A DNA stretch of 64,000 bases from an uncultured Planctomycetia bacterium (GTDB lineage Bacteria; Omnitrophota; Gorgyraeia; B26-G9), in contig CAYTGV010000009.1 in NCBI GenBank assembly GCA_964437495.1, positions 6,983-70,982 on the forward strand, given 5' to 3'. The translations under genes were made by a program, and so were the position numbers. Shown piece by piece: positions 2,590 to 14,402 of this stretch; position 1 is the stretch's first letter, and each line of letters starts with the position of its first letter. Below the pieces are notes generated by a model. The model had not been told where the DNA came from, did no database searches, and saw nothing but the letters and a program-made list of their open reading frames with translations.

Positions 2590-2667
2590 CGGGGCGTGGC
2601 GCAGTTTGGCTAGCGCGCTTGAATGGGGTTCAAGAGGTCGGTGGTTCGAGTCCACTCGCCCCGACCA
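2590..2667 (+). tRNA. tRNA-Pro (anticodon GGG)
   Basis: Cloverleaf folded by hand. Acceptor CGGGGCG/CGCCCCG (7 bp), U8, D-stem GCGC/GCGC, anticodon stem CUUGA/UCAAG with loop AU-GGG-GU, T-stem GGUGG/CCACU with loop UUCGAGU, discriminator A, encoded CCA. Confidence 0.8.
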
Positions 2668-2721
2668 TTATTGCAAGAATTTAAGGCGGTTGCAAACCGG
2701 AAAGAAAATTTAAAAAACAAT

Positions 2722-3126
2722 ATGAGCGATTCTGAAAGAAGAAATTTCGTACGCATTAATGCTAACTTTGTTGTAAGTTATTATGTGTATCCTGGGCATG
2801 TTAACCGAACTGATATGACGCTTACGAGAAATGTCAGTGTGGGAGGAATTTGTTTTACAACTGATAAGCATTTTCCACCGGGTACAATTCTACATATTAC
2901 CTTAAGACTGCCGAAAGTAAAAAATTTGGTTGAAATCCTGGGAGAAGTTATGTATGTTAAGCAAGAGACAAATAAAAAACTTCTTTTCGATATTGGTGTT
3001 AAATTTGTGCAGTGTAAGGATGATGACCTGCATATAATTGATAAGATAATAAGTGTCTGCGCAAGTTCAGAGACTAAACTGGATATGATTTACAAAATTA
3101 AAAAAAATGAAGATAAAAAAAATTAA
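2722..3126 (+). CDS. PilZ-domain protein (c-di-GMP receptor)
   Basis: RRNFVRI (RxxxR) followed by NVSVGGICF (D/NxSxGG) PilZ motifs. The tracked ORF started at 2623 inside the tRNA, so I trimmed to the first ATG downstream (MSDSERRNF...). Confidence 0.6.
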   Translation: MSDSERRNFVRINANFVVSYYVYPGHVNRTDMTLTRNVSVGGICFTTDKHFPPGTILHITLRLPKVKNLVEILGEVMYVKQETNKKLLFDIGVKFVQCKDDDLHIIDKIISVCASSETKLDMIYKIKKNEDKKN

Positions 3127-5487: not shown

Positions 5488-6698
5488 AAAAAGAAATAAA
5501 ATATATTGTAATTGTGCCGGATGGTATGGCTGACAATTCCTTGGCAGAATTCGGCGGCAAAACTCCTTTAGCAGTAGCCAGAACTCCGAACATGGATTTT
5601 ATGGCTGTGAACGGTAAAATCGGGTTATCTTCTTTTATTCCGCAGGGAATGACGCCGGGAAGTGATGTGGCTAATCTGGCTATTTTCGGTTATGATCCAA
5701 AAAAGTACTTTTCTGGAAGAGCGTCTTTTGAGGCCACAAATTTAGGCATAAAAATCAAGGAGGGTGAAATCGCTTTTCGCTGTAATTTCATTACAGAAGA
5801 AAACGATATTCTTATAGATTATAGTGCTGGGCATATTAAAACAAAAGAGGCGCATGTCTTGATCAAAGTTTTAAATAATAGGTTGGGAAATGATATTTTT
5901 AGATTCTATCCGGGAACAAGCTATAGGCATATATTGGTAATAAAGGATCCAAACCACGCTTATGAGGCGCTGAAATGTTTTCCACCGCATGATATTATGG
6001 GTAAAAGCGTAGCTGAGCACTTGCCGCATTTAAAAGCTGATGATAAATTGCTCATTCTGCTTAAGCAGGCAAAGGAGGTCCTGGATGAACATGAAGTTAA
6101 TATGGTACGCAGAGATTTAAGTGAAAATCCGGCAAATATGATCTGGCTATGGGGACAGGGAAAAAAACATGACCTTCCCTTTTTTAAAAAAAAATATGGG
6201 GCAGGCGGCAGTGTAATTTCTGCGGTTGATTTGATCAAGGGAATAGGAAAATCTATAGGGTTAATGCCGATTGATGTTCCGGGTGCAACCGGATATTATG
6301 ATACAGATTATGCTGCTAAGGCAAAATATGCCTTAATGAGCCTGGAGCGGGAAAATTTTGTTTTTATTCATGTTGAAGCAACTGACGAGGCTGGGCATAA
6401 TGGTGATGCTAGAGCTAAAATAATTGCGATTGAGAACATAGACAGATTGATCATTGGAAAAATCCTTGAAGAATATAAGGATAGAGACGATTTTCGGATC
6501 CTGGTATTGCCTGATCATCCTACACCGGTAGCATTAAAAACACATACAAGTGATCCTGTATGCTTTTTAATGTATGGACACGGAGTTGCGAAAGATGAAT
6601 TTTTATGGTATAATGAATTAGAGGCTGGGAAAAGCGATTTTAGGTTTAAAAATGGCTTTGAGCTTATGGATTGGTTTATGGGAAGGGATAGCTTTTAA
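5484..6698 (+). CDS. Cofactor-independent phosphoglycerate mutase, archaeal-type (ApgM family) homolog; by context a candidate non-orthologous homoserine kinase
   Basis: 404 aa. N-terminus [10 protein letters not shown] and C-terminal metal-binding region [12 protein letters not shown]...PDHPTP, typical of ApgM/metalloenzyme-superfamily mutases. Translationally coupled to thrC. Confidence 0.75.
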
Positions 6699-6826: not shown

Positions 6827-6855
6827 TTGACTTAATTGATGTATTGTGATATACT
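6827..6855 (+). promoter_or_regulatory. Sigma70-like promoter (TTGACT-17 nt-TATACT) for the riboswitch-giant gene transcript
   Basis: Near-consensus -35 and -10 hexamers with a 17-nt spacer, read directly. About 80 nt upstream of the aptamer. Confidence 0.35.
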
Positions 6856-6929: not shown

Positions 6930-7017
6930 ATTTAGCAGGGGCAACTCTAAGGGAAATCTTGGGGACGCAAAGCTACGGGTCTAAAGCATGTGCAAAGATC
7001 GCCGGGCGTACCGACAA
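6930..7017 (+). promoter_or_regulatory. c-di-GMP-I (GEMM) riboswitch aptamer
   Basis: CAGGGGCAACUCUAAGG-GAAA-UCUUGGGGACGCAAAGCUACGGGUCUAAAGC...GCCGGGCGUACCGAC. Nearly co-linear with V. cholerae Vc2 (CAGGGCAAACC...GAAA...GGGACGCAAAGCCUCCGGCCUAAACC...GCGGGGUUACCGAUGG). Its P2-like stem CUAAGG/UCUUGG is capped by a GNRA GAAA tetraloop. It is a GC-rich island inside an AT-rich 520-nt leader. Confidence 0.55.
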
Positions 7018-7097
7018 CGACTTTACACGCTATTGATAGCCGGGCTACCGAGATATAAGCAGTTCGGCTTTTATATTATAAGGAGGAAAGGAGGAAC

Positions 7098-7169
7098 ATG
7101 AGAAAACCTAAAAAAACATTGCACTTATTTATATTTTATACATTCTTAAAAGTTCAGTGTATGCGTTAG
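7098..7169 (+). CDS. Small leader ORF (23 aa, MRKPKKTLHLFIFYTFLKVQCMR) with a tandem Shine-Dalgarno
   Basis: AAGGAGGAAAGGAGG ends 4 nt before the ATG. Located between the riboswitch and the giant gene. Below the ORF-track size cut-off. Confidence 0.3.
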   Translation: MRKPKKTLHLFIFYTFLKVQCMR

Positions 7170-7219: not shown

Positions 7220-10200
7220 ATGTTTAATAGTATCCGCAGTTATACATATATTGTATTAGTAAGTTTTTTAGTAAACGCGTTGACTTTGGGCAATGCATTT
7301 GCATTGGATCTGGAGGCATGGCAAGACATGCTCATGTCTGATGAGGTCATCCAGGGTGTATTCGGAGGCGTAATCAGCTCTCAGAGTGAGTCTGGAGAAA
7401 TGGACACAGCAGTTGCTCCGGCACCTCGCGTGATCGAGCAGTCAAATGGCGATATAGCCATAAGGTTTAGTGATTCCGCACAAGCTAGTGTTTCCACAAC
7501 CACAGAAGGCCTTACAAAAGTAACATATTCAATGAGTGGCGCTAGAGTAAAAGTAAAGGATCTGGAAACTAATGAGGAATTTGAGTTTCAGTATGAGCTT
7601 GAGGGTTCTGTAGTTAAACTGGTTAACTCAAGCGGAGCGGTTGTGCGTCAGGAAACCTATAATAATTTTGGTCAGCTTTTGACAACTAAAGCGCAGGGCA
7701 CAAATACAAATGTGTATTCTTCCGATGGATTAAATACACTTGTTAAATCTATTGACCAGTGGGGCAATGAAACAATCTATGATGACGAGAGCCGTCCTGA
7801 TTTTGCGCAATATATAGAGGTTGACGGTACAGTAGTTGTTTTTAGAAATTATACCTTTGACAACATTGGAATACTTGAAAGCATCGTAGATGAAAACGGT
7901 AATAGCATTACTTTTCTGGCTGACGGAATAAGAGTTGATGAGATAAGAAACTTTGCCGGTACACTTACTAGTTCTTATCAATATGATGACGTCTCAGGTA
8001 ATCTTATAAGCGTTACAGATCATGTGTCTGATTCAATTACGATAGTTGATGGCGGTCAGTATACCCAGACTTATGATATTGTTCCGGTTTTAGATGATAA
8101 CAATAATCCAGTGCTTGATGCAGGCAATGAACCTGTGACAGAATTGGTTTTAAAGGGAACTTATAATTATGATGTAGCCGGGAATGTGTCTGCTATTACC
8201 AATATTGGTGAAGAGGGCTGTGTTACCGGATGGACAGATTATGATGAGTTCGGCCGAATATCCGGAACATATAACCATGAAGGTGCATTGGTACAATCTT
8301 ATATGTATAATGATCATGGTTTTTTACAGCAAACTATGAGCTTAGGCGATGCTCAGACTGTGGTGTCGGTTACGAAGTTTGACCTTAAAGGCCGTCCTAT
8401 GGAAGTTTGGCAGATCGGCAACGGGGGGAATAAAGTAAAAATTCAGGAATATGTCTATAAGGAAAATGGACTCCTTGATACTACTTTCTCATTAGGAATT
8501 CTTAGAGGTACGGATGAAACAAATGAGACAACTTTTAATAAGCCTATAGACACAAATGGAAACCTTGTCACAGACGGCAGATTTACTTACTTTACAACAT
8601 CAACGACTGAGTATGATAAAAAAGGTAGGCCATCGACAGTATATTCAATAGTGCGAAATGACAATGGGGATTATATCTCCGGCTATGATGATAACGGCGA
8701 TGTGATTACAACAGCTGATTCTACTCAGGCATTGCTTGAAAAACAGCAGTCTTACAGCTATGACAAAAGAGGATTTCTTTCTAAAACAACCAGCTATGGC
8801 TTTAACAACCGCGCGACTTCAACAACACAATTTGACCGCTATGGCAGACCTGAGAAGTCTTTTAATGCTCAAGGTGAGCAAACGCAGGAATATGTATATA
8901 ATCTTGATGGTTTTCTTGTCCAGACAAAAAATTTCGGCGAAAATGGTGTGCAAACTGGATATACTAATTACGATGCCAAGGGAAAACCAACAGACGTATA
9001 TAATCATCTAGACACTCTTACCCAAAAATACGTTTACGATGAAAACGGCTTAATGGTTATGAGTTTAAATCTTAACGGTACTGATGGTGTTAATTCTGAA
9101 ATAATATCAACAATGTCTGATGTAGAATTAATCGCAGCTATGTGGGATGATAGTTTTAGCGCTGAAGTATTAGCGGGTATCGGTGCTTATAATGAGATAG
9201 AGGGCGATGGTATCCCGGCATTAAATGAGGCATTAATGACTGCTATTTGGGATGAAAATAATGAACATACTACAGATTTCAAAAAGAAATGCGCAATGAT
9301 GCTTATAAAGACTTTTAGTGATGGCGCAAAGGGCGGCAATCAGTATTTAATTAATGATGTCGGCAGTGCTTATCATATGCTTGGCCAGTTTCTTGAAGAA
9401 GAAGGCAATAATGAAGGAGCAGTTGCGGCTTATAAGATTCAGGCATCTGAATTTACAGGCGCGATGGCTATAGCTGATGGTGTTAGCGTTTCTGTTACAG
9501 CCTGGTCAACAGACAGACTTGTAAATATGACAGATGCCAATGGGGATCCAGTAGCAGTAAATACTGCTGTTGTAACCGGATATACCATTTTTGGCGGAGA
9601 CTCAAAACCAATATCCTCTTATCAATGCTATGATGATGGGGTAAATGGTCTGCAGGTTACCAAGGTACAGGATTATGATTACTCCTATGAAGCAACAAAG
9701 AAAATTATCGTAGGTTATGATACAGATAATAAACCAATATATGAAAAAATAACCTTTACACAATTTTCTAACTTTGTTAGAAAAACTATTAATTACGGTG
9801 ATTATGAAGATACAAATGCAAATGGTACTGTAGGCGATGCCGGTGATGTTCAGGTAACAACAGGATTTACAGTATTTGATAACTACGGCAGACAGCTTGA
9901 AACCTATAATGAAGATGGCAATGTTGTTCAAAAATATTCTTATTCAAAGTCAGGATTTTTGAATTTTACTTACTCTTACGGTAAAGACAAGGCTCTTACC
10001 GGAACAACTGTTTTTGACAATTACTCTAGACCAATTGCCAGTTTTAATGCATACGGAAAAGCAACCAGGATACCGGCTGACCTTATCGCTGCATTAGCTG
10101 ACGGTCTTAGCATAGCAGATATTGAAAATCCGGAATGGCAGCCATTTTTAAAAGGACTGACTCAGACCTTTGAATACGGAACAGACGGCCTACTGGCAAC

Positions 10201-13200
10201 CAGTAAGTCCTGGGGAGAAGCAGTAGTGGTCGATGTCAGTGATTTAAGCGGTTTTGCTGAGGCCCTGGGCAGTGTTAAAGGTGATGAGAACTATGAAGTT
10301 GAGTTTGATTTCAACGAAGATGGCGAAATTAATCAGGCTGATATGGATATTTTAGAGGAAGATTTTACTGGTTCTGAAAATATGGTAAATCAGTTCATTA
10401 ACCTTACTGCAGAAAAATCTGATTTAAAAGATTTCGCTAATACTTTTGAATCAAAGGTACTATATAAGGCAACACAAACCGGATATACTGTATATGACAA
10501 ATACGGAAAAGCATCAGAGGTTTATAATTCTGAGCCTATTATTGTTGATGGAGTTACAGTAGCAGACGGTGTTTTAAATCAGAAATATGTTTACAATGAA
10601 AGAGGCTTCATGACCAGATCCGAGTCATATGGGATCAATATGGATGAATACGGAAATGTGCAAATGCAGGAAGATATCCCTGAGGCCTTACTGACTGGTT
10701 ATACCTTGTTTGATGCCGGTTCAAAGCCTACGGAAACCTATTCAGTTTATAATAGTCAGGAACTTGACGATCAAGGTAATCCTTCTATTGATGTAATGTC
10801 TAAAGTACAGGATTATACATATGAAGACGGTTTTCTGATCCAAACAAACAATTATGCCAGAAACGGCGCAGATGCAGGTTATACAACATTTGATAAATAC
10901 GGACGCCAAGAGGCATCATATAATGAAAATGAAGAGCCCCAGAAAACATCAACATATCAGTATTCTAAACAGGGATTTCTTACACAGACAAACAGCTATG
11001 GTTTAAATGGCGCCTATCTTGGAAAAACATTATTTAACAAAAAAAGCAGACCAATTGAATCCTACAACATGACGGGATCAAAAAATACGGAAAAGGGGCT
11101 GACCCAGAAATTTGTATATAATGATTATGGGTTTTTGACAAACAGCATAAGTTATGGAGAAGACCAGATTTTAACCGGACAGACATTTTATAACGGTTAT
11201 GGAAAAGCAATGTATAGCTCTAATGATGTGGGAATTACCAATTCAGCCTATGTATATGATTCAGCTGGATTTCTTGATCACACTCTGGCTCTGTCTTTTG
11301 AAGTAGGCGCAGGGCCTGATGAGGCAACGCATAATAACTTAAATGATTCAGAAGATACATTAAACACTCAGGTGCCTGAGAGCGGTTATTATGTAATCAC
11401 TGGCTATACAGTCTTCGGTGATACATCCAAGCCTGAGGCTGCTTATCAATGCTGGGGATGGACAGGCGATAATCTGCCGGCATACGGCGATGGTGCTAAA
11501 GTACAGGAATACAACTATACAGATGGTTTTCTTACAAGCACTTCAAATTACGGTAAGGATGAAACATTTATAGGTACAACTGTATTTGATAAATACGGAC
11601 GCCAGGAGGCATCATATAATGAAGTTGATGTTGATGGAGACGGCTTAGGTGAGCTTACGACAAAATTCAAATATTCAAAACAGGGTTTTATGAATACATC
11701 CTACAATTATGGCGCAAAAGGTTCTCTTGTTGGAACTACAACTTTCAATAGCTTGGGTAGACCGGAACAAAGCATTAACCAAAGAAAAGCGGTTACTCAA
11801 ACCTTCCATTACAATGAATTTACTGGAGCATTGGATGAAAGTTATTCCTGGGGTGAACCGACAGAGGTTGACGGTGTATCTACTCCAACCTTAACCGGAA
11901 CAACTGAATATGACACCTGGGGAAAAGCACAGACTCAGTTTAATTCCGAAGGCAGCATTGTTGCTAAATATGACTATGATGTGCATGGATTTATGACCCG
12001 CGCGTTTTCGTTCAGCGGCGGTACTGCTACTGATGTAGGAGTATGTACAGGATTTACAAATTATAACGCAGCCGGAAGACCGGAAGGGGCATATTCGGTA
12101 TTTAATCCGACAACTGCGAGCGGCGACTTAATGGGTAGTTGGTACGATGATTATTTCTATCTCGGGGTTGATGAGAATACCATTGGAGTTACAAAGGTAC
12201 AAGATTTCATCTATAACACAGAGGCTGAAGTTGGCGGAGATATCTTGGGGTATATCGGAACTTCTGATACCGGATTTTTGACAATGACAGTCAGTTATGG
12301 TGATAATTACAATGCGGATAACCCATCTGAATCTTTTATGGGATATACGACATTCAATAGATACGGACAACAGGATTATTCCTATAATGAACTAAATGAA
12401 CAGACAACCAAATTTAATTATTCAAGCTCAGGGTTTTTAAGTGAAACCTATAACTATGGTATAGACAAAACATTGACAGGAAAAACTGTTTTCAATGCTA
12501 CGGGAAGACCGGAAGCCTCATATAATGAGAAAGGCGCTTTACTGCAGACTTTCGAATATGTTGGCGGATTTCTTACAGCCAGTACAAGCTATGGTGATCC
12601 TGGAGATTTAGAAGTAGGCGGAATAACAGGAACTACTTCTTATGATATATACGGCAAACAAGACCAATCGCTCAATGCGGAGGGCACCCTTGTAGGTACA
12701 TTTGAATACTCAGTAAACGGTTTTATGACCAAATCCAATACCTGGGGTTATGGATTGGATAATACTACCGGAGAAACTGGCTCTACGATTACTGGCTTTA
12801 CAAATTACGATAACAAGGTCAGACCTGAAAACAGTTATGCTGTATATGAAAGTTGGCTTGGCTACAATGAATCGCTTTCTCAGGTGTTTTCATATGACAA
12901 CGATGGAGAACAAACAGGGTTTGTAACCGGCGCTCAGACATATGTTGTCAATAATGACCATAATTTTGGAACCGATAATATTGCCAATGATATTGATACT
13001 GGAGAGGTATTGCTATCAGGAACTGTCGAATATAACCACTATGGCAGACCAGAACAGACATACAATAAAGAAGGCGCAATAGTCTCAAAGAATATTTATA
13101 GTTCCAATGGTTTTATTACCAAGACTGATAACTATGGTGAGGATGGAAAAAAAGTCGGGTCTCTGTATTTTAGCGATGTTGGCAGGCCTCTTTATGCAAC

Positions 13201-14104
13201 CAATCATTCTGGTGGTGTTACAACAGAATATGTTTACAATAACGCTGGATTCTTGAATCAGACAATCGGATATATCGGCGGATCGATCAATGAAGAAACC
13301 GGAGATATCGAAGGAGTTATGAGCTCATATACAACATTTGATGTCTATTCTAAAGCTCAGGAAACCTTTCAATTGTGGACAATGAGTGAATCATCTGTTA
13401 ACTCGGAATACTATCAATTTGATGAAAATGGTACGGCTAACTATACTATAAACGGTGATGGATCTATCAGCGATGGCGGATTGACCTCAGTGAATCAGAA
13501 TGCTGATATCAGTCACTACAACGCTTTTGGATCGCTATTACAGACTGATAATAAAGGCCGACAGGGAAGCACTGTCAGTTCAACTATGTATGACTCTTTT
13601 TCTAAGCCGACATCTATCTGGAATGATAAAGGTTCGCTTGTTCAGGTTTACCATTATTCCGCACAGGGATTCCTGGATTACTCTATCAGCTATGCTACGA
13701 TGAAGAGCTATAATGATAGAGGAAACCCGGTTGATGATGGTGACTGGGATACAACAACAGAAACCTCAATAACGTTCTTTAACACGTATGGTCAGCAGAC
13801 AAATGGCTATGTTCTTAGCAATGACAGCAGCAGCGGCCAAGAAGGTTGGGACCTGGTTAACTATGTCCAGAATATTGACAATCAAACAGGCCTGGAATTG
13901 GGCGCAAAGCAGAGCGAGTATAAATATGATAATAACGGCTTCTTGTCCCAGACCAAGAACTATCAGGACAAACAGTATATTGGTTATACAACATTCGATC
14001 TAAGCGGAAGACAAGATGAATCATTTAACCAATCAGGTACATTGACCACCACTTACTTATATGATTTAAACGGCTTCTTGAACAAAAGCGCTTCGCATGG
14101 TTAA
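7220..14104 (+). CDS. Giant secreted repeat protein (2,294 aa) built from ~25 divergent YD-like repeats; likely surface/adhesin-type protein
   Basis: RBS GAGAGGAGG. N-terminal signal peptide (IVLVSFLVNALTLGNAFA). ~38-40-aa periodic unit [YxYxxxGF(L/M)xxTxxYG...GxTx(F/Y)DxxGRPxxSYNxxG] recurring along almost the whole length, with a non-repeat insert at ~9100-9560. Confidence 0.85.
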   Translation: MFNSIRSYTYIVLVSFLVNALTLGNAFALDLEAWQDMLMSDEVIQGVFGGVISSQSESGEMDTAVAPAPRVIEQSNGDIAIRFSDSAQASVSTTTEGLTKVTYSMSGARVKVKDLETNEEFEFQYELEGSVVKLVNSSGAVVRQETYNNFGQLLTTKAQGTNTNVYSSDGLNTLVKSIDQWGNETIYDDESRPDFAQYIEVDGTVVVFRNYTFDNIGILESIVDENGNSITFLADGIRVDEIRNFAGTLTSSYQYDDVSGNLISVTDHVSDSITIVDGGQYTQTYDIVPVLDDNNNPVLDAGNEPVTELVLKGTYNYDVAGNVSAITNIGEEGCVTGWTDYDEFGRISGTYNHEGALVQSYMYNDHGFLQQTMSLGDAQTVVSVTKFDLKGRPMEVWQIGNGGNKVKIQEYVYKENGLLDTTFSLGILRGTDETNETTFNKPIDTNGNLVTDGRFTYFTTSTTEYDKKGRPSTVYSIVRNDNGDYISGYDDNGDVITTADSTQALLEKQQSYSYDKRGFLSKTTSYGFNNRATSTTQFDRYGRPEKSFNAQGEQTQEYVYNLDGFLVQTKNFGENGVQTGYTNYDAKGKPTDVYNHLDTLTQKYVYDENGLMVMSLNLNGTDGVNSEIISTMSDVELIAAMWDDSFSAEVLAGIGAYNEIEGDGIPALNEALMTAIWDENNEHTTDFKKKCAMMLIKTFSDGAKGGNQYLINDVGSAYHMLGQFLEEEGNNEGAVAAYKIQASEFTGAMAIADGVSVSVTAWSTDRLVNMTDANGDPVAVNTAVVTGYTIFGGDSKPISSYQCYDDGVNGLQVTKVQDYDYSYEATKKIIVGYDTDNKPIYEKITFTQFSNFVRKTINYGDYEDTNANGTVGDAGDVQVTTGFTVFDNYGRQLETYNEDGNVVQKYSYSKSGFLNFTYSYGKDKALTGTTVFDNYSRPIASFNAYGKATRIPADLIAALADGLSIADIENPEWQPFLKGLTQTFEYGTDGLLATSKSWGEAVVVDVSDLSGFAEALGSVKGDENYEVEFDFNEDGEINQADMDILEEDFTGSENMVNQFINLTAEKSDLKDFANTFESKVLYKATQTGYTVYDKYGKASEVYNSEPIIVDGVTVADGVLNQKYVYNERGFMTRSESYGINMDEYGNVQMQEDIPEALLTGYTLFDAGSKPTETYSVYNSQELDDQGNPSIDVMSKVQDYTYEDGFLIQTNNYARNGADAGYTTFDKYGRQEASYNENEEPQKTSTYQYSKQGFLTQTNSYGLNGAYLGKTLFNKKSRPIESYNMTGSKNTEKGLTQKFVYNDYGFLTNSISYGEDQILTGQTFYNGYGKAMYSSNDVGITNSAYVYDSAGFLDHTLALSFEVGAGPDEATHNNLNDSEDTLNTQVPESGYYVITGYTVFGDTSKPEAAYQCWGWTGDNLPAYGDGAKVQEYNYTDGFLTSTSNYGKDETFIGTTVFDKYGRQEASYNEVDVDGDGLGELTTKFKYSKQGFMNTSYNYGAKGSLVGTTTFNSLGRPEQSINQRKAVTQTFHYNEFTGALDESYSWGEPTEVDGVSTPTLTGTTEYDTWGKAQTQFNSEGSIVAKYDYDVHGFMTRAFSFSGGTATDVGVCTGFTNYNAAGRPEGAYSVFNPTTASGDLMGSWYDDYFYLGVDENTIGVTKVQDFIYNTEAEVGGDILGYIGTSDTGFLTMTVSYGDNYNADNPSESFMGYTTFNRYGQQDYSYNELNEQTTKFNYSSSGFLSETYNYGIDKTLTGKTVFNATGRPEASYNEKGALLQTFEYVGGFLTASTSYGDPGDLEVGGITGTTSYDIYGKQDQSLNAEGTLVGTFEYSVNGFMTKSNTWGYGLDNTTGETGSTITGFTNYDNKVRPENSYAVYESWLGYNESLSQVFSYDNDGEQTGFVTGAQTYVVNNDHNFGTDNIANDIDTGEVLLSGTVEYNHYGRPEQTYNKEGAIVSKNIYSSNGFITKTDNYGEDGKKVGSLYFSDVGRPLYATNHSGGVTTEYVYNNAGFLNQTIGYIGGSINEETGDIEGVMSSYTTFDVYSKAQETFQLWTMSESSVNSEYYQFDENGTANYTINGDGSISDGGLTSVNQNADISHYNAFGSLLQTDNKGRQGSTVSSTMYDSFSKPTSIWNDKGSLVQVYHYSAQGFLDYSISYATMKSYNDRGNPVDDGDWDTTTETSITFFNTYGQQTNGYVLSNDSSSGQEGWDLVNYVQNIDNQTGLELGAKQSEYKYDNNGFLSQTKNYQDKQYIGYTTFDLSGRQDESFNQSGTLTTTYLYDLNGFLNKSASHG

Positions 14105-14140
14105 TTAAAAGCAGATTGAATGTCCAATATCAATTCTCAC

Positions 14141-14176
14141 AACCCCCTGCCCTTAGGGCAGGGGGTTGTATTTTAT
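14141..14176 (+). terminator. Rho-independent terminator of the giant gene
   Basis: AACCCCCTGCCC-TTA-GGGCAGGGGGTT, a 12-bp GC-rich stem, followed by GTATTTT. Confidence 0.7.
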
Positions 14177-14402
14177 ATATCTTTTGGTTAAGTAAGCTAA
14201 AGGAAGATTGTCTGATGGGAATTCTTAATTGGTTAAAATAATTCATAAATCATTAAGCCATAGAGCCCTATTTAACCTAATTAAGGATGTCCCTCTTTTT
14301 TACTTGAATAAAACCCATTCTTGTTGTAAAATAATGAGTCTGATAGAAAATTTTATATGTTGAATTATTTTTATTGCCTTCCTTGATTTAAGGAAAACTA
14401 AC

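Follow-up and report, generated by a model that had tools for sequence, protein, structure and literature searches.

The gene and its neighborhood

The window analyzed here, a stretch of 64,000 nucleotides, comes from an uncultured Omnitrophota bacterium and harbors an open reading frame of 2,294 codons plus a stop codon (7220..14104), the product of which is a giant protein built from YD-like repeats behind a signal peptide. All of the features described below lie, like this gene, on the + strand. Both the extent of the reading frame (ORF call and translation, matched by full-length orthologues) and the general nature of its product agree with the original prediction, which was made from the sequence alone. 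A promoter-like site, TTGACT-17-TATACT with a TG extension (6827..6855; 10/12 consensus matches, a consensus match only), is found about 75 nt upstream of a riboswitch aptamer. Right after the ORF there is a strong intrinsic terminator (14139..14179), as had been foreseen, in which a 14-bp stem with 10 G-C pairs is followed by a T-tract. The arrangement would represent a single-gene transcription unit that runs from the promoter through a c-di-GMP-I riboswitch and the ORF to the terminator and, since the gene appears to have both signals of its own, it is probably not co-transcribed with its neighbors.

One-to-one orthologues, collinear over their full length and 37-80% identical, are present in around 18 independent Candidatus Omnitrophota MAGs, as intact ORFs of 2,115-2,303 aa in which each repeat is conserved position by position. 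The orthologue loci in species-representative genomes number 14, of which 13 are titled Candidatus Omnitrophota and one PVC group bacterium. Synteny is identical in all 12 retrieved loci, in each of which the gene keeps a fixed place beside kdsA-kpsF-kdsC-lptB and has kdsA, not an immunity gene, as its 3' neighbor; the order apgM-giant gene-kdsA is complete in the 11 loci with a recovered upstream flank, the apgM side being missing from locus L007, which is cut at that end. The giant gene belongs to a single Omnitrophota clade, in which it is inherited vertically and present in one copy.

Giant ORFs full of repeats are known to call for caution in MAGs, and this one might have been a collapsed or chimeric assembly, or else the decaying remnant of an Rhs gene. 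No support was found for either origin, to which we give next to no credence: the ORF contains no tandem DNA repeats, its longest near-identical DNA repeat is 45 nt, the identical protein is found on six contigs, and the MAGs carry collinear, intact ORFs with position-specific conservation of all repeats. On these observations, the giant ORF is real and not a collapsed-repeat artefact.

The riboswitch leader

The riboswitch leader of the original prediction is a c-di-GMP-I (GEMM-I) aptamer (6930..7052), which scores 50 bits with RF01051 (gathering score 35) and has a P2 loop extended by 41 nt. It is followed by an expression platform (7038..7078) in the form of an intrinsic terminator, made up of an 11-bp stem (7038-7048 with 7059-7069), a 10-nt loop and a U-tract (7070-7078). 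The 5' strand of this terminator contains the 3' strand of aptamer P2 (7040-7046, from the cmscan alignment). Across nine loci 92.9% of the cells in the terminator stem are paired, compared with 24-50% when the partner strand is slid; the changes in the stem are one-sided only, with no double compensatory changes in these nine loci. The minimum-free-energy fold of 6930-7082 forms the terminator hairpin, which is therefore the in-silico default.

The overlap between the P2 strand and the conserved terminator, together with the in-silico fold, implies that the riboswitch acts as an ON switch. At low c-di-GMP the 3' strand of P2 would pair with its downstream complement to form the terminator, stopping transcription before the ORF, whereas with c-di-GMP bound the same strand would be locked within the aptamer, the terminator would not form and the 6.9-kb mRNA would be made. 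The aptamer is found upstream of the orthologous gene in around 15 of 18 evaluable loci and is missing at three (L004, L009 and L024), so c-di-GMP control is not obligatory for the gene. The platform is followed by a Shine-Dalgarno-like element, AAGGAGGAAAGGAGGAA (7081-7097), and a 23-codon ORF (7098-7169), together spanning 7081..7169. A purine element of the AAGGAGGAAAGGAGGAA type is kept in all of the orthologous leaders read out, including that of riboswitch-less L004, and the peptide of the leader ORF is not conserved among them.

The YD repeats

The repeats contain two alternating motifs, as had been noticed originally, with 23 occurrences of [YF]x[YF]x2-5G[FLA][LMIV] and 26 of [TS]x[FY][DNG]xx[GS][RKQ]. 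The period, given at first as 38-40 aa, is actually 46 aa, with a sub-period of 22-24 aa (autocorrelation peak at lag 46, z 5.8; motif spacing). Each 46-aa unit is a pair of alternating YD hairpins that keep to the canonical YxYDxxG(R/F)L register, the di-repeat consensus vQ.Y.Ys..GFL..T.nYG.ng..TG.T.FD.yGRP.eSYN..G aligning in register with canonical YtYDa.Gnlts.Tda.G..t.YtYDa.Grl. The earlier view of a different register and a different GFL..YG half therefore fails, as both halves are canonical-register hairpins.

Along the chain, the most canonical YD region is N-terminal (aa ~72-334; 7433..8221), where canonical Rhs proteins mostly align (profile positions ~65-340) and where a weak Tse5 alignment (aa 118-264) also falls. 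A first block of 46-aa di-repeats follows (aa 335-625; 8222..9094), with the sequence motifs and, in the structure model, regular beta-hairpins at pLDDT 80-93. A second stretch of YD repeats (aa 775-1002; 9542..10225), delimited by the model and motif spacing, has a short helical excursion at aa ~953-977. The C-terminal YD region (aa 1085-2294; 10472..14101; pLDDT 83.8) ends in a YD hairpin and holds about 5-6 super-repeats of ~220-256 aa, each of around five di-repeats or ten hairpins. This higher-order repeat of ~220-256 aa was overlooked in the original prediction; its copies are 31-43% identical (internal matches at offsets of 221-256 aa, E down to 1e-39), and autocorrelation peaks are found at lags 232 and 249.

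The suggestion that these sequences represent a genuinely new repeat family, merely echoing YD repeats, finds some encouragement in single-sequence searches. Pfam RHS_repeat falls below its gathering score of 22 on the full-length window protein (18.9 bits), NCBIfam gives no match to the full-length protein, and a PDB sequence search returns only Tse5, at E 0.37. However, the Pfam comparison that the original prediction had proposed as a check gives 24.9 bits on the N half of the protein and matches in 10/12 orthologue N halves and 4/12 C halves (TIGR01643 matches 2/12 orthologues), and a family-profile search yields 10,399 matches at E <= 1e-3, thousands of them Rhs-type proteins. Canonical Rhs proteins are matched at E 1e-34 to 1e-50, including P0046, with 29 RHS_repeat stretches and an RHS core, at 5.7e-50 and P0019 at 1.5e-34. 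With the shared register, and with Foldseek neighbors that are all YD shells, these matches refute the new family, which we regard as very improbable. On the same grounds, namely the register, RHS_repeat on N halves, the Rhs profile matches and Foldseek matches to YD shells only, the giant protein is a branch of the YD/Rhs superfamily, divergent and without a toxin, and not a new fold.

Inserted modules

A non-repeat module had been predicted within the array, and it corresponds to a TPR-like, all-helical insert (aa 632-769; 9113..9526), modeled with 6-7 helices. Family-profile positions 622-730 match proteins that Pfam assigns as TPR, and with the insert profile E is 8e-7 for designed TPR proteins and 0.39 for MamA. 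The second insert is a predicted dockerin-like calcium-binding module (aa 1003-1078; 10226..10453). The dockerin or EF-hand idea was right, in that the calcium loop DFNEDGEINQAD, intact as loop 1 at aa 1030-1041 (nt 10307-10342), looks to be half of a dockerin, most orthologues having the complete module; from the alignment of two-loop and one-loop forms, loop 2 was lost through a 17-aa deletion in the window lineage. Dockerin_1 is below threshold on the window protein (E 0.06) and matches 8/12 orthologues (best E 3e-6), and the module profile matches the cellulosomal dockerin 2y3n_B at E 3e-7. Both modules interrupt the repeat array and probably serve in protein-protein docking.

Predicted structure and the C-terminal end

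Structure prediction, also proposed at the outset, was run as two half-length AlphaFold models built from 12 sequences only, which gave pLDDT values of 75.2 and 83.8 and pTM values of 0.71 and 0.74. The best ~40 Foldseek matches of both models are all Rhs, Tc-BC, teneurin, TLP or SGS1 proteins (E 1e-29 to 1e-11), and both halves match YD-shell proteins locally, with poor global superposition. Around 80 YD beta-hairpins would form one long antiparallel sheet, the fold being seen locally and the assembly deduced from it, and the 23/46/~230 aa hierarchy would fit a spiral or tube that winds regularly through several turns, each of about ten hairpins. The periodicity and the poor superposition of the half-length models suggest an open spiral or tube, unlike the Rhs toxins, whose cocoon is closed and has three turns.

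The predicted lack of an RHS core, a toxin and a recognisable anchor holds in the window protein, in which a motif scan found no PxxxxDPxGL, DPxG[hydrophobic] or LPxTG and in which Pfam and NCBIfam gave no anchor or toxin domains. The protein does end inside a repeat, as do all 18 full-length orthologues, whose termini lie 2-6 residues past a conserved YxYDxNGFL hairpin. Because this end is conserved, DPxGL is absent from 20 family members, TIGR03696 matches neither the window protein nor the orthologues tested, and kdsA rather than an immunity gene lies downstream, the giant protein is not a polymorphic toxin.

Export and function

By eye, the N-terminus reads MFNSIR, a 17-residue hydrophobic stretch and NAFA|LD, which looks, as originally proposed, like a Sec-type signal peptide (aa 1-28, cleavage after NAFA; 7220..7303), in a pattern conserved in orthologues. 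The protein is acidic, rich in G/T/S/N/D/Y and Cys-poor, a composition typical of secreted proteins. No gene for a secretion system, no anchor motif and no partner cohesin was found near the giant gene.

We favor, with a probability of about 0.6, a c-di-GMP-induced, Sec-exported, cargo-less YD surface scaffold or adhesin that would be made on the switch to an attached state. Attachment or scaffolding is preferred to a role as a weapon because of the YD repeats, the missing toxin-release core and toxin, and the conserved riboswitch, and the adhesin role draws on analogy with c-di-GMP-riboswitch adhesins and on the proposed epibiotic lifestyle of Omnitrophota. The regulated surface or matrix role proposed originally thus stands as the most plausible function; its surface location we infer. 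A Sec signal peptide alone carries a protein only to the periplasm of a diderm, and the protein could instead be structural within the periplasm or envelope, for instance a spacer or scaffold linked to the biogenesis of LPS and the outer membrane, and never be exposed at the surface. This would suit both the fixed position beside kdsA-kpsF-kdsC-lptB and a protein in which only the Sec signal is recognisable, no outer-membrane targeting signal having been found by sequence, Pfam or NCBIfam. It is unlikely, however, given the secreted-type composition and the gene's apparent separation, by its own promoter and terminator, from its neighbors' transcripts. Furthermore, c-di-GMP riboswitches typically govern factors of the cell surface and of motility and not the housekeeping of the envelope, and to our knowledge all characterised dockerin modules and YD repeats lie outside the cell (cellulosomal dockerins, Rhs/WapA, teneurins).

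An Rhs/Tc-like encapsulation device seems somewhat more doubtful still. Here the YD sheet would close into a very large cocoon, the cargo of which, either internal (the TPR-like/dockerin segment) or supplied in trans, would be delivered to prey or host cells. Every structural neighbor is a cargo-carrying YD shell, the length is near that of the TcdB2-TccC3 shell (TcB + TcC ~2,100 aa), itself among the Foldseek matches, and Omnitrophota have been proposed as predators or parasites (PMC10066038).

Comparison with known systems

The Rhs polymorphic toxins (the T6SS effectors RhsA, Tse5, Tse15 and RhsP, and B. subtilis WapA) share the YD beta-hairpin and its register with the giant protein, and are both its best Foldseek neighbors (E to 1e-29) and its best profile-level sequence relatives, but it has neither the toxin-release core nor the toxin by which Rhs proteins are defined. 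The BC cocoon of Tc toxins (TcdB2-TccC3, YenB/YenC) is also made of YD hairpins and has a YD sheet of similar length (~2,100 aa); in contrast, the giant protein has no beta-propeller, core protease or hypervariable cargo, and TM-scores are 0.07-0.12.

Within the phylum, the Archaeovorin- and Dockerin-type proteins, for which long hollow 'antiparallel beta-helix' tubules are predicted, are dockerin-bearing giants that have been proposed as adhesins (PMC10066038; bioRxiv 10.1101/2023.11.21.568195). They likewise carry dockerin/EF-hand modules on huge exported proteins, a likeness by description, but they have >20,000-30,000 aa and many transmembrane segments, are poorly conserved and lie beside T2SS-like loci, whereas the YD giant has 2,294 aa, is strongly conserved and is riboswitch-controlled.

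In regulation, the closest parallels are the large adhesins Cap (Bc2-Cap, PMC4933901) and CbpA (PMC7423583), switched on by c-di-GMP riboswitches in Bacillus thuringiensis, and several C. difficile surface proteins under such riboswitches (PMC6200980). As here, these adhesin systems combine a 5' UTR riboswitch, a terminator platform and inferred ON logic with a single large surface-protein gene, but the giant protein belongs to another phylum, the diderm Omnitrophota, and its fold is unrelated, with YD repeats in place of collagen-binding/Cna-B domains. We found no literature tying a c-di-GMP riboswitch to a YD/Rhs protein.

Finally, teneurins and the bacterial TLPs (PMC13018210, PDB 9ifo) also combine YD repeats with adhesion-type modules in proteins that are exported or at the surface. 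The giant protein has none of their FN-plug, NHL or TTR domains or cleaved C-terminal domain and, unlike TLPs, in which the cleavage site of the RHS core is retained along with a toxic C-terminal domain (PMC13018210), it carries neither. The teneurins demonstrate that a YD scaffold can serve adhesion.

Repeat organization of the giant protein

The giant YD protein is encoded on the plus strand by a single open reading frame (7220..14104) of 2,294 amino acids, with a size of about 250 kDa. As read from the sequence, its N-terminus harbors a Sec-type signal in which MFNSIR is followed by a 17-residue hydrophobic core and then by NAFA/LD. The repeat unit was originally described as 38-40 aa in length. 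The two half-motifs of that description occur 23 and 26 times, respectively, strictly alternating at a spacing of 22-24 aa. When the repeat region is autocorrelated with BLOSUM scores, the main peak falls at a lag of 46 (z 5.8), a sub-peak appears at 22, and others stand at 232 and 249. This sets the unit at 46 aa, a di-repeat of two hairpins. The original description also overlooked a second-order repeat of 220-256 aa, which is visible only when chunks of the protein are compared by BLAST with the masked remainder; self-BLAST of the whole protein returned nothing beyond the identity match. By the chunk-wise comparison, aa 1117-1330 resemble aa 1338-1570 (37% identity, E 2.5e-35), and aa 1451-1628 resemble aa 1707-1876 (43% identity, E 1.5e-39).

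Membership of the YD/RHS superfamily

The YD/RHS superfamily encompasses proteins with repeated, HMM-detectable units of ~20-23 aa of the form YxYDxxG(R/N)L...G (PF05593, TIGR01643), and such units are found in the giant protein. The Pfam RHS_repeat model (PF05593) scores 18.9 bits with the full-length protein, just under the threshold of 22, whereas the N-terminal half alone reaches 24.9 bits against the gathering score of 22. Among 12 orthologues, the same model picks up 10 of the N halves and four of the C halves, and TIGR01643 matches two. With the full giant protein, NCBIfam returned no match and a sequence search of the PDB returned Tse5 alone (E 0.37).

A consensus drawn from 96 di-repeats in nine family members (vQ.Y.Ys..GFL..T.nYG.ng..TG.T.FD.yGRP.eSYN..G) aligns by hhalign in the same register as the canonical YD consensus of two true Rhs proteins (.t.YtYDa.Gnlts.Tda.G..t.YtYDa.Grl.s.tda.G.); the alignment, at 52.7% probability and E 1.4e-4, serves to define the register and is not a proof of homology. 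Judged by these consensus sequences, both halves of the di-repeat are YD repeats, one of an "A" flavour, YxY[DNS]xxGFL...T..YG, and the other of a "B" flavour, TxFDxxGRP..SYN..G. Homology to YD/Rhs proteins is instead drawn from the Pfam matches of the N halves and from the family profile. A profile of aa 30-1200 gave 10,399 matches at E <= 1e-3 among 1.84 billion representative proteins, and canonical Rhs proteins were matched at 1e-34 to 1e-50. The strong matches outside the family are giant proteins, two of which have domains on record: P0046 (E 5.7e-50) contains 29 RHS_repeat stretches, DUF6531, and an RHS core, and P0019 (E 1.5e-34) contains RHS_repeat, TEN_YD-shell, and DUF6531.

Predicted fold

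The protein was modelled with AlphaFold2 as two half-length models from a 12-sequence alignment, giving a pLDDT of 75.2 and a pTM of 0.71 for aa 30-1200, and a pLDDT of 83.8 and a pTM of 0.74 for aa 1096-2294. By DSSP, both models consist almost wholly of beta-hairpins, with four strands per 46 aa and, in the two models together, a total of ~155-160 strands or ~80 hairpins. Each repeat is predicted to form a hairpin in a continuous antiparallel sheet, as in other members of the superfamily. Among the first ~40 Foldseek matches to the PDB for both halves, only YD-shell proteins are found (E 1e-29 to 1e-11), and these include T6SS Rhs, Tse5, Tse15, RhsP, TcB-TcC, YenBC, teneurins, bacterial TLP, and SGS1.

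Absence of toxin-device features

The domains, motifs, and neighboring genes by which Rhs, Tc, or TLP toxin devices are recognized were not found. Rhs toxins contain an Rhs core, in which a PxxxxDPxGL aspartyl autoprotease motif closes the shell. A regular-expression search found DPxGL in none of 20 family members, whereas the control Rhs protein P0019 has PTRYMDPDGAW, and the giant protein itself lacks PxxxxDPxGL, DPxG followed by a hydrophobic residue, and LPxTG. The Rhs core model TIGR03696 matches neither the query nor any of the 12 C halves, and a weak match of PF03527 in one orthologue (E 1.3e-4) corresponds to a YD-like segment, not to the protease motif. Rhs toxins are further characterized by a variable C-terminal toxin and an adjacent immunity gene. 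Here, all full-length orthologues end 2-6 residues past a shared YxYDxNGFL hairpin; neither a polymorphic C-terminus nor an immunity gene was found, and the downstream neighbor is always kdsA. Within the giant protein, Pfam and NCBIfam revealed no toxin or anchor domain, and no PAAR, VgrG, plug, NHL, or beta-propeller domain was found, the propeller being covered by the Pfam scan and the secondary structure of the models. The teneurin/TLP superfold unites an FN-plug, an NHL beta-propeller, and a YD-shell, and Pfam detects no NHL, FN3, or TTR domain in the giant protein or the orthologue halves. Outside the helical TPR-like and dockerin-like modules, both models are unbroken YD-type hairpins. 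The original prediction that the protein has no RHS core, C-terminal toxin, or recognizable anchor, and ends within a repeat, is thus upheld.

In Rhs toxins, the shell is a closed hollow cocoon of about three spiral turns. Taken together, the missing toxin-device features and the regular ~230-aa super-repeat suggest that the giant protein, modelled here as half-lengths from a shallow alignment, may wind into a uniform spiral or tube of many turns and not into a cocoon that tapers and is capped.

Strands of 10-13 residues, longer than the rest, occur once per ~230-aa super-repeat in the model (10568-13300, aa 1117-2027), around conserved TGYT.F..(S/G)(K/R)P..(S/A)Y and KVQ.Y.Y segments. In the proposed spiral, these strands may represent a seam or an inter-turn contact.

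Inserted modules

The periodicity is broken by two modules, both of which had been noticed originally. The first, aa 632-769 (nt 9113-9526), is all-helical in the AlphaFold2 model and appears TPR-like, TPR repeats being tandem 34-aa helix-turn-helix pairs with their own consensus. Profile positions 622-730 match proteins that Pfam calls TPR, and the insert profile matches designed consensus-TPR proteins (E 8e-7) and MamA (E 0.39); Pfam TPR_8 itself is found in only one of 12 orthologues (E 0.002).

The second is a ~75-aa module that contains the calcium loop DFNEDGEINQAD (aa 1030-1041), which had been likened to a dockerin or EF-hand. Type I dockerins (PF00404) have two tandem calcium-binding F-hand segments of ~22 aa. 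Only loop 1 is present in the window protein, in which Dockerin_1 gives an E of 0.06, below the cutoff. Both loops, and hence a complete dockerin, are found in orthologues P0008, P0010, and P0012-P0015; loop 2 has gone through a 17-aa deletion in the window's clade and in P0016, and the module is missing altogether in P0018 and P0023. Dockerin_1 matches eight of 12 orthologues (best E 3e-6), and a profile of the module matches solved cellulosomal dockerins at E 3e-7. Since one loop is present here, two are present in orthologues, and the profile matches dockerins, the window copy reads as a degenerate half-dockerin.

Distribution and genomic neighborhood

A search of 5.8 billion proteins yielded 18 relatives, 17 of which are full-length and collinear (2,115-2,303 aa, 37-78% identity) and one of which is truncated (1,425 aa). 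All those with a named source are labelled Candidatus Omnitrophota or PVC group, and the next match is a true Rhs protein (E 1e-3). Conservation is even along the whole protein and each repeat has its own orthologue, which shows that the repeats are not a fast-evolving array.

A distant relative from the representative search, P0023 (2,981 aa), shares 28% identity over ~1,780 aligned columns. It retains the N-terminal region and the TPR-like insert but not the dockerin module, its repeats are more numerous, and its end is a different one, ...QAVLDLFLNNIWIR; it gave no Pfam matches.

Loci with wide flanks share the order plsY-gpsA-tRNA-PilZ-hom-thrC-apgM(-cstA)-[giant gene]-kdsA-kpsF-kdsC-lptB-hpf-ptsN-cofD-HPr-ptsI, and those with short flanks have apgM or cstA immediately upstream and kdsA downstream. 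The gene is found amid housekeeping genes, with neither mobile elements nor immunity genes around it. When each GTDB species was scanned through a single genome, 14 loci emerged, 13 of them titled Candidatus Omnitrophota and one PVC group bacterium. The even conservation, the shared neighborhood, and the taxonomic spread of the loci indicate that the gene is single-copy and has been inherited vertically within one Omnitrophota clade.

Four genes upstream lies a gene for a small PilZ-domain protein, a c-di-GMP receptor (2623-3126, plus strand; Pfam E 3.4e-11), just after a tRNA (2590-2664), and its position is constant in orthologous loci with enough flank. Counting the riboswitch described below, there are two effectors of c-di-GMP in a span of 5 kb. 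Since the start listed for the PilZ frame overlaps the tRNA, the true start probably lies further downstream.

The riboswitch leader and terminators

The leader of the giant gene contains a c-di-GMP-I aptamer (RF01051) at 6930-7052, which lies in the 5' UTR on the same strand as the gene and scores 50 bits in Rfam against a gathering score of 35. A strong intrinsic terminator is found 3' of the stop codon, at 14139-14169. Both the riboswitch leader and the gene's own terminator had been predicted. A promoter-like sequence, TTGACT-17-TATACT, is located at 6827-6855. The aptamer is present in about 15 of 18 species, scores 36-68 bits in orthologous leaders, and precedes the giant gene in loci L002, L003, L005, L006, L008, L010, L011, L012, L013, L014, L016, L017, L022, and L025. 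None was detected upstream of the gene in L004, L009, or L024, the first two having been searched to E <= 1 (spans 5700-6000 in L004 and 1135-1500 in L009). Three lineages thus manage without the riboswitch. In L004, a near-consensus TTGACA-17-TATAAT promoter lies directly upstream of the gene, the product of which is P0018, also devoid of the dockerin module.

Orthologous aptamers range from 118 to 184 nt, with an extension of the P2 loop that is variable and always present; in the window (6980-7030), the P2 distal loop has a 41-nt insertion, compared with 8 nt in the Rfam consensus. The aptamer of L006 (5690-5811), from the most divergent riboswitch-bearing orthologue in a MAG labelled PVC group, is best matched by c-di-GMP-I-GGC (RF03167; 67.9 bits, gathering score 59) rather than by the standard c-di-GMP-I model, and the ligand specificity may differ in this lineage.

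The aptamer is followed by an 11-bp stem (7038-7048 with 7059-7069) and a U-tract, an arrangement that is possible in all nine aligned leaders. Across loci, 92.9% of stem cells are paired, as opposed to 24-50% when the partner strand is slid, and the changes in the stem are one-sided only. The 5' strand of this terminator contains the 3' strand of aptamer helix P2 (7040-7046 in the cmscan alignment), which makes the terminator and aptamer folds mutually exclusive. The unconstrained ViennaRNA fold of 6930-7082 contains the terminator, at -39.6 kcal/mol, or -32.5 with the downstream strand blocked; enforcing the terminator pairs gave -43.2 kcal/mol, a value that was discarded because an A-C pair is then forced. 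The leader terminator is clear only by the comparative alignment and this shorter fold, the fold of the whole leader being no better than shuffled (z -0.04). In the simplest reading of the sequence, the riboswitch would be an ON switch, in which the ligand-bound aptamer would prevent terminator formation and allow read-through.

About 10 nt past the riboswitch terminator is a strong Shine-Dalgarno-like element, AAGGAGGAAAGGAGGAA, followed by a 23-codon frame, MRKPKKTLHLFIFYTFLKVQCMR (7081-7169). Every orthologous leader read out has an AGGAGG-type element at this position, that of the riboswitch-less L004 (~5862-5870) among them, and in L005 the small frame is fused in frame to the giant one. 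A conserved leader peptide was rejected, as the peptide is kept only in the nearest relative; the element or small frame could be an mRNA-stabilizing 5' SD element or a regulatory uORF.

Proposed function and alternatives

The gene is a single-gene unit composed of a promoter-like site, riboswitch, terminator-type platform, open reading frame, and terminator. Its product combines a signal peptide, YD-superfamily repeats, and TPR-like and dockerin-like modules with vertical conservation and no toxin apparatus. High c-di-GMP would turn the gene on, and the exported protein would act as a surface scaffold or adhesin in the form of a long, cargo-free YD spiral, on which the dockerin and TPR modules could be docking sites. 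Tentatively, with a probability of roughly 0.3, we propose that the repeats form no cocoon but a long tube or fibre, open and regular, in which each ~230-aa turn consists of ten hairpins and the turns number ~8-9. The TPR-like and dockerin modules would decorate this tube, which would be used as a cargo-free attachment stalk, made as c-di-GMP rises, to hold the ultra-small cells of Omnitrophota on a host, prey, or surface.

Other explanations can be set against a surface scaffold or adhesin. Sec targeting is the only targeting recognizable in the giant protein. Where the Pfam scan covered the 64-kb window, which leaves out the ORFs at 44.7-64 kb, it showed no secretion genes, no GGDEF/EAL genes, and no cohesin, the partner that type I dockerins bind. 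With Sec targeting alone visible, the protein could be a periplasmic scaffold, which we consider unlikely. A giant encapsulation device is a still slimmer prospect, as every functional hallmark of one is absent. The original prediction held the repeats to be YD-like, which the HMM matches, register, and fold bear out, and also to constitute a new repeat family; this second claim is contradicted by the canonical register, the Pfam match of the N half, the Rhs profile matches, and the exclusively YD-shell neighbors in Foldseek, and is so improbable as to be effectively refuted. An artefact or pseudogene has next to no probability and is likewise effectively refuted. There are no tandem DNA repeats in the gene, similar DNA repeats do not exceed 45 nt, and an identical protein is recorded on six contigs, so that a collapse of repeats during assembly is excluded for practical purposes.

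Comparison with known systems

Large adhesins in Bacillus thuringiensis are switched on by c-di-GMP riboswitches (PMC4933901, PMC7423583). Omnitrophota have been proposed to be ultra-small epibionts or predators with giant dockerin-bearing proteins for attachment (PMC10066038; bioRxiv 10.1101/2023.11.21.568195), and hollow "antiparallel beta-helix" tubules have been predicted in their giant proteins (bioRxiv 10.1101/2023.11.21.568195). By analogy, these cases lend support to a scaffold or adhesin. Literature searches found nothing relevant on Omnitrophota with either c-di-GMP or YD repeats, no paper tying a c-di-GMP riboswitch to a YD/Rhs protein, and no description of this Omnitrophota giant-protein family. 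The repeat, the riboswitch class, and the regulatory theme are already known; what is unusual is the phylum and a YD architecture that is toxin-less, of double length, and repeated hierarchically.

Omnitrophota are suspected of alternating between free and attached (epibiotic or predatory) states, and to our knowledge have no cultured model organism. The giant gene could make such lifestyle switching testable. Its riboswitch, found in most of the species, ties second-messenger signalling to a putative surface structure in a concrete way that can be tested, and the leader, a compact candidate for an ON switch, is amenable to in vitro tests without culturing the organism. The stalk, if true, would put the Rhs/teneurin repeat to a use that is new in both structure and function, and would give a first molecular handle on how these uncultured bacteria switch lifestyle.

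With few exceptions, the known YD/Rhs repeats form closed shells around a toxin or, in teneurins, around the relic of one. In contrast to these shells, the giant YD protein is without core protease, cargo, immunity gene, and plug, while a strict repeat hierarchy and candidate docking modules have been gained. This combination of toxin features shed and repeat order and modules gained argues that the scaffold itself is functional.
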